From: Escherichia phage Qbeta
DNA: 4,218 bases
Direction: 5' to 3' (one strand)
Sequence record: FJ483840.1
The notes under the pieces were generated by a model that ran no database searches, was not told the origin of the DNA, and saw only the letters and a list, made by a program, of their open reading frames with translations. The stretch's first letter is position 1. The number at the start of each line of letters is the position of its first letter. A program made the position numbers and the translations under genes. Positions 1,345 to 4,122 of the stretch are shown here, one piece after another.

Positions 1345-1746
1345 ATGGCAAAATTAGAGACTGTTACTTTAAGTAACATCGGGAAAGATGGACAACAAAC
1401 TCTGGTCCTCAACCCGCGTGGGGTAAATCCCACTAACGGTGTTGCCGCGCTTTCACAAGCGGGTGCAGTTCCTGCACTGGAGAAGCGTGTTACCGTTTCG
1501 GTATCCCAGCCTTCTCGCAATCGCAAGAACTACAAGGTCCAGGTTAAGATCCAGAACCCGACCGCTTGCACTGCAAACGGTTCTTGTGACCCATCCGTTA
1601 CTCGCCAGGCATATGCTGACGTGACTTTCTCGTTCACGCAGTATAGTACCGATGAGGAACGAGCTTTTGTTCGTACAGAGCTTATCGCTCTGCTCGCTAG
1701 TCCTCTGCTGATCGATGCTATTGATCAGCTGAATCCAGCGTATTGA
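1345..1746 (+). CDS. cp: Major coat (capsid) protein
   Basis: AUG at 1345 to the TGA at 1744..1746 encodes 133 aa (MAKLETVTLSNIGKDGQQTLVLNPRGVNPTNGVAALSQAGAVPALEKRVTVSVSQPSRNRKNYKVQVKIQNPTACTANGSCDPSVTRQAYADVTFSFTQYSTDEERAFVRTELIALLASPLLIDAIDQLNPAY). This is recognisably the Qβ coat protein, including the two Cys residues (CTANGSC) that form inter-subunit disulfides in Qβ. The track ORF starts at 1321 because it counts a TTG; the real start is the AUG at 1345. Confidence 0.96.
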   Translation: MAKLETVTLSNIGKDGQQTLVLNPRGVNPTNGVAALSQAGAVPALEKRVTVSVSQPSRNRKNYKVQVKIQNPTACTANGSCDPSVTRQAYADVTFSFTQYSTDEERAFVRTELIALLASPLLIDAIDQLNPAY

Positions 1747-2334
1747 ACACTGCTCATTGCCGGTGGTGGCTCAGGGTCAAACCCCGATTCGGTTATCCCG
1801 GATCCACCGATTGATCCGCCGCCAGGGACAGGCAAGTATACCTGTCCCTTCGCAATTTGGTCCCTAGAGGAGGTTTACGAGCCTCCTACTAGGAACCGAC
1901 CGTGGCCTATCTACAATGCTGTCGAACTCCGGCCTCGCAAGTTTGATGTTGCCCTCGAAGATCTTTTGGGCAATACAAATTGGCGCGACTGGGATTCACG
2001 GCTGAGTTATACCACGTTCCGCGGTTGCCGTGGCAATGGTTATATTGACCTCGATGCGACTTATCTTGCTACTGATCAGGCTATGCGTGATCAGAAGTAC
2101 GATATTCGCGAGGGCAAAAAACCTGGTGCTTTCGGTAACATTGAGCGATTCATTTATCTTAAGTCGATAAATGCTTATTGCTCTCTTAGCGATATTGCGG
2201 CCTATCACGCCGATGGTGTGATAGTTGGCTTTTGGCGCGATCCATCTAGTGGTGGTGCCATACCGTTTGACTTCACTAAGTTTGATAAGACTAAATGTCC
2301 TATTCAAGCCGTGATAGTCGTTCCTCGTGCTTAG
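1345..2334 (+). CDS. A1: A1 read-through protein (minor capsid protein; coat extended by about 196 aa through suppression of the coat UGA)
   Basis: The frame stays open after the coat UGA (1744..1746) from 1747 to a TAG at 2332..2334, which is followed immediately by an in-frame TAA at 2335..2337. The extension reads TLLIAGGGSGSNPDSVIPDPPIDPPPGTGKYTCPFAIWSLEEVYEPP...KCPIQAVIVVPRA, which I recognise as the Qβ A1 read-through domain. Total length is 329 aa if UGA is decoded as Trp. Confidence 0.9.
1744..1746 (+). other. Leaky UGA stop codon (programmed translational read-through site separating coat from the A1 extension)
   Basis: UGA in the context UAU-UGA-ACA-CUG, followed by about 585 nt of open in-frame sequence. 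In Qβ this UGA is misread by tRNA-Trp at a few percent frequency. Confidence 0.88.
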
Positions 2335-2348
2335 TAACTAAGGATGAA

Positions 2349-2368
2349 ATGCATGTCTAAGACAGCAT
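2349..2368 (+). promoter_or_regulatory. Coat-protein translational operator hairpin containing the replicase initiation codon
   Basis: AUGCAUGUC-UAA-GACAGCAU forms an 8-bp stem (2349..2357 paired with 2361..2368) with a bulged A at 2353 and a 3-nt UAA loop. The replicase AUG (2353..2355) lies in the 5' arm. This matches the known Qβ operator that coat-protein dimers bind to repress replicase translation. Confidence 0.88.
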
Positions 2369-4122
2369 CTTCGCATAACTCTCTTAGCGCACAATTGCGC
2401 CGAGCTGCGAACACAAGAATTGAGGTAGAAGGTAACCTCGCACTTTCCATTGCCAACGATTTACTATTGGCTTATGGTCAATCGCCATTTAACTCTGAAG
2501 CTGAGTGTATTTCACTCAGTCCGAGATTCGACGGGACCCCGGATGACTTTAGGATAAATTATCTTAAAGCCGAGGTCATGTCGAAGTATGACGATTTCAG
2601 CCTAGGTATTGATACCGAAGCTGCTGCCTGGGAAAAGTTCCTGGCAGCAGAGGCTGAATGTGCTTTAACGAACGCTCGTCTCTATAGGCCTGACTACAGT
2701 GAGGATTTCAATTTCTCACTGGGCGAGTCATGTATTCACATGGCTCGTAGAAAAATAGCCAAGTTAATAGGAGACGCTCCGTCCGTTGAGGGTATGTTGC
2801 GTCACTGCCGTTTTTCCGGTGGTGCCACAACAACGAATAACCGTTCGTACGGTCATCCGTCCTTCAAGTTTGCGCTTCCACAAGCGTGTACGCCTCGGGC
2901 TTTGAAATATGTTTTAGCTCTTAGAGCTTCTACACATTTCGATATCAGAATTTCTGATATTAGCCCTTTTAATAAAGCAGTTACTGTACCTAAGAACAGT
3001 AAAACCGATCGTTGTATTGCTATCGAGCCTGGCTGGAATATGTTTTTTCAACTAGGCATCGGTGGCATTCTACGCGATCGGTTGCGTTGCTGGGGTATCG
3101 ATCTGAATGATCAGACGATAAATCAGCGCCGCGCTCACGAAGGCTCCGTTACTAATAATTTAGCAACGGTTGATCTCTCAGCGGCAAGCGATTCTATATC
3201 TCTTGCTCTCTGTGAGCTCTTACTGCCCCCAGGCTGGTTTGAGGTCCTTATGGACCTCAGATCACCTAAAGGGCGGTTGCCTGACGGTAGTGTTGTTACC
3301 TATGAGAAGATTTCCTCTATGGGTAACGGATACACATTCGAGCTTGAGTCGCTTATCTTTGCTTCTCTTGCTCGTTCCGTTTGTGAGATACTGGACTTAG
3401 ACTCATCTGAGGTCACTGTCTACGGAGACGATATTATCTTACCGTCCTGTGCAGTCCCTGCCCTTCGGGAAGTCTTTAAGTATGTTGGTTTTACAACCAA
3501 TACTAAAAAGACTTTTTCCGAGGGGCCGTTCAGAGAGTCGTGCGGTAAGCACTACTATTCTGGCGTAGATGTTACTCCCTTCTACATACGTCACCGTATA
3601 GTGACCCCTGCCGATTTAATACTGGTTTTGAATAACCTATATCGGTGGGCCACGATTGATGGCGTATGGGATCCTAGGGCCCATCCCGTGTACCTCAAGT
3701 ATCGTAAGTTGCTGCCTAAACAGCTGCAACGTAATACTATACCTGATGGTTACGGTGATGGGGCCCTCGTCGGATCGGTCCTGATCAATCCTTTCGCGAA
3801 AAACCGCGGGTGGATCCGGTACGTACCGGTGATCACGGACCATACAAGGGACCGAGAGCGCGCTGAGTTAGGGTCGTATCTTTACGACCTCTTCTCGCGT
3901 TGTCTCCCGGAAAGTAACGATGGGTTGCCTCTAAGGGGTCCGTCGAGTTGCGATTCTGTAAATCTGTCTGCTGTCGATCAACTTATCTGTAGGAGCAATC
4001 CTACAAAGATAAGTAGATCTACTGGCAAGTTCGATATACAGTATATCGCGTGCAGTAGCCGTGTTCTGGCACCCTACGGGGTCTTCCAGGGCACGAAGGT
4101 TACATCTCTACACGAGGTGTAA
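2353..4122 (+). CDS. rep: RNA-directed RNA polymerase, replicase beta subunit (catalytic subunit)
   Basis: AUG at 2353 to the TAA at 4120..4122 encodes 589 aa (MSKTASSHNSLSAQLRRAANTRIEVEGNLALSIANDLLLAYGQ...). The canonical RdRp catalytic motif YGDD is at 3421..3432 (VTVYGDDIILPS). An AAGGA Shine-Dalgarno-like element lies at 2340..2344. I recognise the protein as the Qβ replicase. The track ORF starts at an in-frame AUG at 2344 (MKC-) that overlaps the SD; 2353 is the accepted start. Confidence 0.95.
   Translation: MSKTASSHNSLSAQLRRAANTRIEVEGNLALSIANDLLLAYGQSPFNSEAECISLSPRFDGTPDDFRINYLKAEVMSKYDDFSLGIDTEAAAWEKFLAAEAECALTNARLYRPDYSEDFNFSLGESCIHMARRKIAKLIGDAPSVEGMLRHCRFSGGATTTNNRSYGHPSFKFALPQACTPRALKYVLALRASTHFDIRISDISPFNKAVTVPKNSKTDRCIAIEPGWNMFFQLGIGGILRDRLRCWGIDLNDQTINQRRAHEGSVTNNLATVDLSAASDSISLALCELLLPPGWFEVLMDLRSPKGRLPDGSVVTYEKISSMGNGYTFELESLIFASLARSVCEILDLDSSEVTVYGDDIILPSCAVPALREVFKYVGFTTNTKKTFSEGPFRESCGKHYYSGVDVTPFYIRHRIVTPADLILVLNNLYRWATIDGVWDPRAHPVYLKYRKLLPKQLQRNTIPDGYGDGALVGSVLINPFAKNRGWIRYVPVITDHTRDRERAELGSYLYDLFSRCLPESNDGLPLRGPSSCDSVNLSAVDQLICRSNPTKISRSTGKFDIQYIACSSRVLAPYGVFQGTKVTSLHEV

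Follow-up and report, generated by a model that had tools for sequence, protein, structure and literature searches.

For natural read-through of a stop codon, the A1 protein of Escherichia phage Qβ is the type example, and it occurs in the type species itself. Historically it was also the first example (Weiner and Weber, 1971). Phages of the MS2 type (Emesvirus, formerly Levivirus) have homologous maturation, coat and replicase proteins, and the corresponding Pfam families are common across the Fiersviridae. MS2-type genomes are devoid of a read-through extension and have their own lysis gene overlapping the coat/replicase junction (PMC13114773); the stretch of 4218 nt analysed here in its entirety (hereafter the window) is the opposite on both counts. 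The UGA codon of Qβ has been described as being read as tryptophan ('1/15'; PMC8067240), and read-through at a level of ~5% has been reported, with A1 serving in the formation of infectious particles (PMC7026636). PMC13517186, citing Weiner and Weber (1973), gives a level of 3–5%, and PMC13114773 describes A1 of Qβ as a low-copy virion component required for infectivity (Weiner and Weber, 1971; Hofstetter et al., 1974). Qβ display technology also builds on the coat/A1 read-through (PMC8067240). The same logic is seen in the CP-RTD proteins of luteoviruses, in which a leaky coat stop leads to particles displaying a minor capsid subunit that is extended at its C-terminus (PMC7026636, Table 1). 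Read-through of capsid genes in eukaryotic viruses involves unrelated proteins and hosts, and usually needs either downstream RNA structures or defined motifs in the 3' context (PMC13517186).

The system closest to the locus analysed here was A1 of Qβ (Qubevirus durum, formerly Allolevivirus genogroup III), which has the same layout of A2, coat/A1 and replicase genes at coordinates within 1–3 nt of those in the window, the same UGA-A site with identical flanks (CCAGCGTAT TGA ACACTGCTCATT) and the same extension of 195 codons closed by UAG-UAA. Across coat and A1 together, Qβ Anc(P1) and the window differed at 36 nucleotides. The more divergent Q. durum phages M11 and MX1, and the phages SP, FI and NL95 (Q. 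faecium, formerly genogroup IV), also have the UGA and a homologous extension of 195–199 codons, with a strongly conserved C-terminal part of the A1 domain. Those of genogroup IV differ in having UGA-G, a single UAA and much more divergent extensions.

Identity and organisation of the genome

With a 5' end beginning GGGG, a 3' end finishing CCCA and three large ORFs on the plus strand, the window has the extent of a full-length genome; its sequence is that of a complete Qβ-type ssRNA coliphage genome, and the phage belongs to Qubevirus durum. A megablast search of the window against phage records returned 80 matching records, all of Qβ or Qubevirus. The top match was Qβ strain HL4-9 (FJ483841; 95.8% identity over 100% of the window), in which positions 1345–1746 are annotated as capsid protein and 1345–2337 as 'read-through protein'. 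Record AB971354, 95.5% identical to the window, carries the annotation 'A1 read-through protein ... leaky stop codon'. These two matches bear out the placement in the Allolevivirus lineage made in the first-pass annotation; according to the taxonomy in the sequence record, 'Allolevivirus' is now the genus Qubevirus. At the level of the whole genome, identity was 95.8% to HL4-9, 95.5% to Anc(P1) and 92.6% to BZ1, the high full-length nucleotide identity to Qβ reference genomes that is expected within Q. durum, and ~72% to M11 and MX1. As no record in the collections searched exceeded 95.8% identity to the window over the whole genome, the phage is, on this sequence comparison, a distinct strain of the Qβ lineage and a natural variant. 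An exact 30-nt pattern taken from the variable linker did not occur in the viral or metagenome contigs scanned, and a look-up of the exact replicase protein gave no match.

Pfam searches with the products of the ORFs at 62–1321, 1345–1743, 1747–2331 and 2353–4119 assigned them to Phage_mat-A, Levi_coat, Read-through (PF16814) and RNA_replicase_B, respectively. The gene order was A2 (maturation/lysis), coat/A1 and replicase, with no separate lysis gene. The coordinates of the read-through unit and of the replicase gene are given in Table 1. The replicase gene begins 16 nt past the terminators of A1; its start was inferred from the annotated starts in FJ483841 (2356) and AB971354 (2352). A mechanical ORF listing put the replicase start at the ATG at 2344, whereas the annotated Qβ start corresponds to the ATG at 2353. 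Translation from the latter yields a polypeptide of 589 amino acids, as in CAA32872 and the annotation of AB971354.

Table 1. Features of the coat/A1 read-through unit and the neighbouring replicase gene in the window
Feature	Position	Strand	Observations
Major coat protein CDS	1345..1743	+	Pfam PF01819 Levi_coat, 206 bits; coordinates as in the capsid CDS of FJ483841
Leaky UGA coat stop, read-through site	1744..1746	+	A at 1747 (UGA-A context)
Read-through extension, 195 codons	1747..2331	+	No in-frame stop; PF16814; 3RLC/3RLK
Tandem terminators UAG UAA closing A1	2332..2337	+	TAG 2332–2334, TAA 2335–2337
Replicase beta-subunit gene	2353..4122	+	Pfam PF03431, 719 bits; outside the read-through unit

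The coat gene, its UGA stop and the open frame beyond it

Translation of positions 1345–2337 in a single frame resulted in 133 codons (including the initiator Met, from the ATG at 1345), a stop, 195 sense codons and two further stops. The first-pass annotation had described the coat ORF as ending in a UGA with 195 further codons to a tandem TAG-TAA, which is exact; the coordinates it assigned to the feature, 1744–2334, are correct for a feature that begins with the UGA and stops at the first terminator, and the second terminator takes the feature to 2337. The nine nucleotides at 1741–1749 read TAT TGA ACA. A single UGA coat stop followed in frame by about 195–200 open codons, as is characteristic of the Qubevirus coat/A1 unit, is thus present. 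Based on a per-codon stop probability of 0.047, derived from the base composition of the window, the probability of 195 consecutive open codons was 7.7e-5. When the stretch was shuffled 20,000 times, the frame stayed open in only three cases, and the remaining five frames of the same stretch contained 4–16 stops each.

The coat protein (calculated molecular weight 14.3 kDa) forms the shared N-terminal part of A1. With Trp at the position of the UGA, the read-through product would comprise 329 amino acids with a calculated molecular weight of 36.2 kDa, in good agreement with the roughly 36 kDa that had been proposed, and the predicted junction peptide would be ...QLNPAY-W-TLLIAGGGSGSNPDSVIPDPPIDPPPGTGK, in which W marks the UGA position. 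Three parts make up the extension: a linker rich in Gly and Ser, a segment rich in proline (PDPPIDPPPG) and the globular A1 read-through domain. The correct annotation for the window is coat at 1345–1746 and A1 at 1345–2337, with the UGA read through. The A2 gene likewise stops at a UGA-A (1322–1324), and its frame closes five codons on at a second UGA (1340–1342), which sits just before the coat start.

Homology to A1 and purifying selection in the extension

Alignment of 1747–2331 to the Qβ A1 domain, which had been named beforehand as the test of the extension's identity, gave 96% amino acid identity, and searches for an in-frame stop or for a lack of A1 homology found neither. A search with the 195 amino acids of the extension against PDB sequences returned matches only to 3RLC/3RLK, 'A1 protein' (E=3e-127), the alignment to 3RLC_A spanning extension residues 11–195 with a handful of substitutions. 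The match to Pfam family PF16814, 'Read-through domain', scored 322 bits, the cut-off being 27. The identification of the extension as the A1 read-through is upheld by alignment and by the PDB and Pfam searches alike. Amino acid identity over the extension was 95% to HL4-9, 96% to Anc(P1) and 92% to BZ1.

The comparison was based on nine Qubevirus genomes (the window, HL4-9, Anc(P1), BZ1, M11, MX1, SP, FI and NL95), which are independent and were sequenced from 1988 onward. In all nine, the coat gene ended in UGA and the homologous frame beyond it stayed open for 195–199 codons. The six Q. durum genomes all had the UGA-A context and a TAG TAA end, while the Q. faecium genomes (SP, FI, NL95) had the UGA-G context and a single TAA. 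The hexanucleotides UGAACU (Qβ) and UGAGCR (FI) are given in PMC13517186. Since G, not A, follows the leaky coat UGA in the genogroup IV phages SP, FI and NL95, read-through in this genus does not always require an A on the 3' side.

The pattern of evolution in the extension is that of protein-coding sequence. Estimated by the method of Nei and Gojobori against four relatives, the dN/dS ratio of the extension was 0.13–0.17, equal to or lower than that of the coat gene (0.17–0.21), and the differences fell mostly at the third codon position, for example 3/2/17 by codon position against Anc(P1). In comparisons with M11 and MX1, pN was ~0.35 for the N-terminal third of the extension and only ~0.08 for the C-terminal third; pS was about even (0.54–0.74). 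Because pS stays about equal while pN falls, these substitution patterns attribute the strongly conserved C-terminal part of A1 to constraint at the protein level, with a steep gradient along the domain. A constraint at the RNA level as the cause of the conserved C-terminal half was considered and rejected on the same figures.

These data leave hardly anything of the reading in which the open frame is non-functional, either as a chance ORF or because the stop is an artefact of sequencing or quasispecies: nothing beyond general possibility speaks for it, and it is already refuted by a chance probability of ~8e-5, strong homology to a solved domain, a dN/dS ratio of 0.13–0.17 and the presence of the UGA in all nine independent genomes.

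Origin of the extended product

We regard it as close to certain that the window is a Qβ-type genome in which read-through of the coat UGA gives rise to A1, and nothing in the sequence contradicts this explanation. In the mechanism proposed, ribosomes on the coat cistron would normally terminate at the UGA at 1744–1746, which would be decoded as sense in a few percent of passages, by analogy with Qβ, where the normal tRNA-Trp reads UGA as Trp at a level put at ~3–7% in the classical literature. The A directly 3' of the UGA would weaken termination, an effect reportedly described in E. coli by Engelberg-Kulka and by Poole, Brown and Tate. Translation would then go on in frame for 195 codons to the UAG-UAA at 2332–2337. 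In the resulting A1 of 329 amino acids and 36 kDa, a flexible linker rich in Gly/Ser and proline would join the coat domain to the globular read-through domain, and a few copies of A1 would replace coat subunits in the T=3 capsid, where they would be needed for infectious particles. The decoding tRNA, the frequency of read-through, the presence of A1 in virions and its requirement for infectivity would be as described in the Qβ literature; for the frequency, the insertion of Trp and the incorporation into virions, this is an extrapolation from Qβ laboratory strains ~4.5% divergent in nucleotides.

An alternative is that the extension is translated alone, by internal initiation after the coat stop, yielding a free domain and not a coat fusion. 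A TTG-initiated ORF of 122 amino acids at 1966–2334, in the A1 frame, appeared in the mechanical ORF listing and could be taken to point in this direction. However, the only in-frame ATG, GTG or TTG codons of the extension are at 1966, 2083, 2218 and 2311, and none of these has a Shine-Dalgarno-like motif 4–12 nt upstream; ribosomes can therefore reach the extension only by starting at the coat gene and passing the UGA. Initiation at any of the four would also remove the conserved linker and proline-rich segment as well as the start of the domain, all of which are under purifying selection, and would leave the in-frame coupling to the coat gene and the UGA in nine genomes unexplained. In addition, PMC13114773 reports that A1 shares the N-terminus of the coat protein by classical protein chemistry (Weiner and Weber, 1971). 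Independent initiation inside the extension is thus unlikely on the sequence, and we consider a separately translated domain highly improbable as the explanation of the locus.

Even less probable is recoding of the UGA as selenocysteine through a SECIS element in place of misreading by tRNA-Trp. UGA is the codon for selenocysteine, and hairpins were predicted downstream of the coat UGA. Against this, when the whole window was scanned with Rfam (E<=1), neither SECIS, including the bacterial SECIS models, nor any other curated RNA family was matched, and no SECIS hairpin was identified directly 3' of the UGA. The fold of the region 1720–1850, on the 3' side of the UGA, had a z-score of -3.7, which is ordinary for this genome: among 131-nt segments taken genome-wide (n=69), the mean z-score was -3.0 and 30% were at least as stable. 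Folding of an alignment of six Q. durum genomes resulted in a covariation term of +0.7, with compensatory change in two of 41 pairs. Insertion of Trp has, moreover, been reported for the Qβ UGA (PMC8067240).

An RNA structure that would stimulate read-through from the 3' side of the UGA was likewise rejected, the z-score being ordinary for the genome and covariation not favourable. Nor was a defined 3' stimulatory motif or structure of the kind known from eukaryotic viruses evident in the window by Rfam, folding or covariation analysis. The absence of an Rfam match in the window, the ordinary downstream fold and the lack of favourable covariation argue for simple context-dependent leakiness, due to the UGA and its immediate context, over a structured recoding signal as the basis of the read-through leading to A1. 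The first-pass annotation had spoken of 'programmed' read-through; the read-through unit itself stands, and the adjective goes slightly too far, given that a dedicated RNA element stimulating the read-through is not known and none was found.

Lysis function and a small ORF embedded in the extension

As the first-pass annotation had implied, the window contains no separate lysis gene of the MS2 type: no such ORF overlaps the coat and replicase genes, and there is no conserved additional plus-strand ORF between 1300 and 2400. This fits with lysis by A2 in Qβ, a function assigned to that protein in PMC13114773 (Karnik and Billeter, 1983; Bernhardt et al., 2001).

A GTG-initiated ORF of 46 amino acids (2030–2170, plus strand, +1 frame relative to A1) is embedded in the extension and has a strongly hydrophobic N-terminus (MAMVILTSMRLILLLIRLCVI; GRAVY 1.3). 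It was considered as a hidden lysis gene and rejected. The frame is open in Qβ strains and broken by internal stops in M11 and MX1; in place of the GTG start, HL4-9 has GTA and MX1 has GAG. Since it is broken in M11 and MX1, the ORF is most likely a chance ORF, as far as can be judged from these sequences.

Amino acid substitutions particular to the strain

Compared with Qβ Anc(P1), the extension contains seven amino acid changes (K145N, P148S, K182R, Q195R, E198K, K204E and K211N), five of which alter charge. All seven fall in the N-terminal 78 residues (1747–1980), with none in 1981–2331, and synonymous changes are spread over the whole extension. The clustering of the amino acid changes had a p value of 0.004 in a Fisher test applied post hoc. 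That the cluster marks a naturally diversifying, host-interaction surface of A1 is a tentative suggestion which we think rather doubtful; if true, this would make the strain an 'entry-enhanced' variant of natural origin that could help to establish the function of A1.

At A1 residue 195, the codon at 1930–1932 is CGG (G at 1931), encoding Arg, where Anc(P1), HL4-9 and BZ1 have Gln. Q195R is the change resulting from A1930G, a mutation fixed repeatedly in the laboratory evolution of Qβ and reported to raise cell entry and lower burst size (PMC12469967). The window has Q195R without the companion changes C1760U or C2011A, in a natural-looking genome ~4.5% divergent, and this 'laboratory-adaptive' allele thus also exists in such a genome. 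Within the coat gene, residue 113 (codon 1684–1686) is changed from GCT to ATC relative to Qβ (A113I). All three nucleotides are replaced, which is unusual between genomes only ~4.5% apart.

Significance of the locus

The coat/A1 read-through unit described here is a textbook feature and already known, and every feature that defines the Qubevirus coat/A1 unit and can be examined in sequence is present, including the extension homologous to the A1 domain (PF16814; 3RLC/3RLK). The presence of A1 in a Qβ genome adds no new biology, and its value lies in the correct annotation of the window. Of marginal further value is the addition of a distinct natural Qβ variant that carries A1 Q195R.
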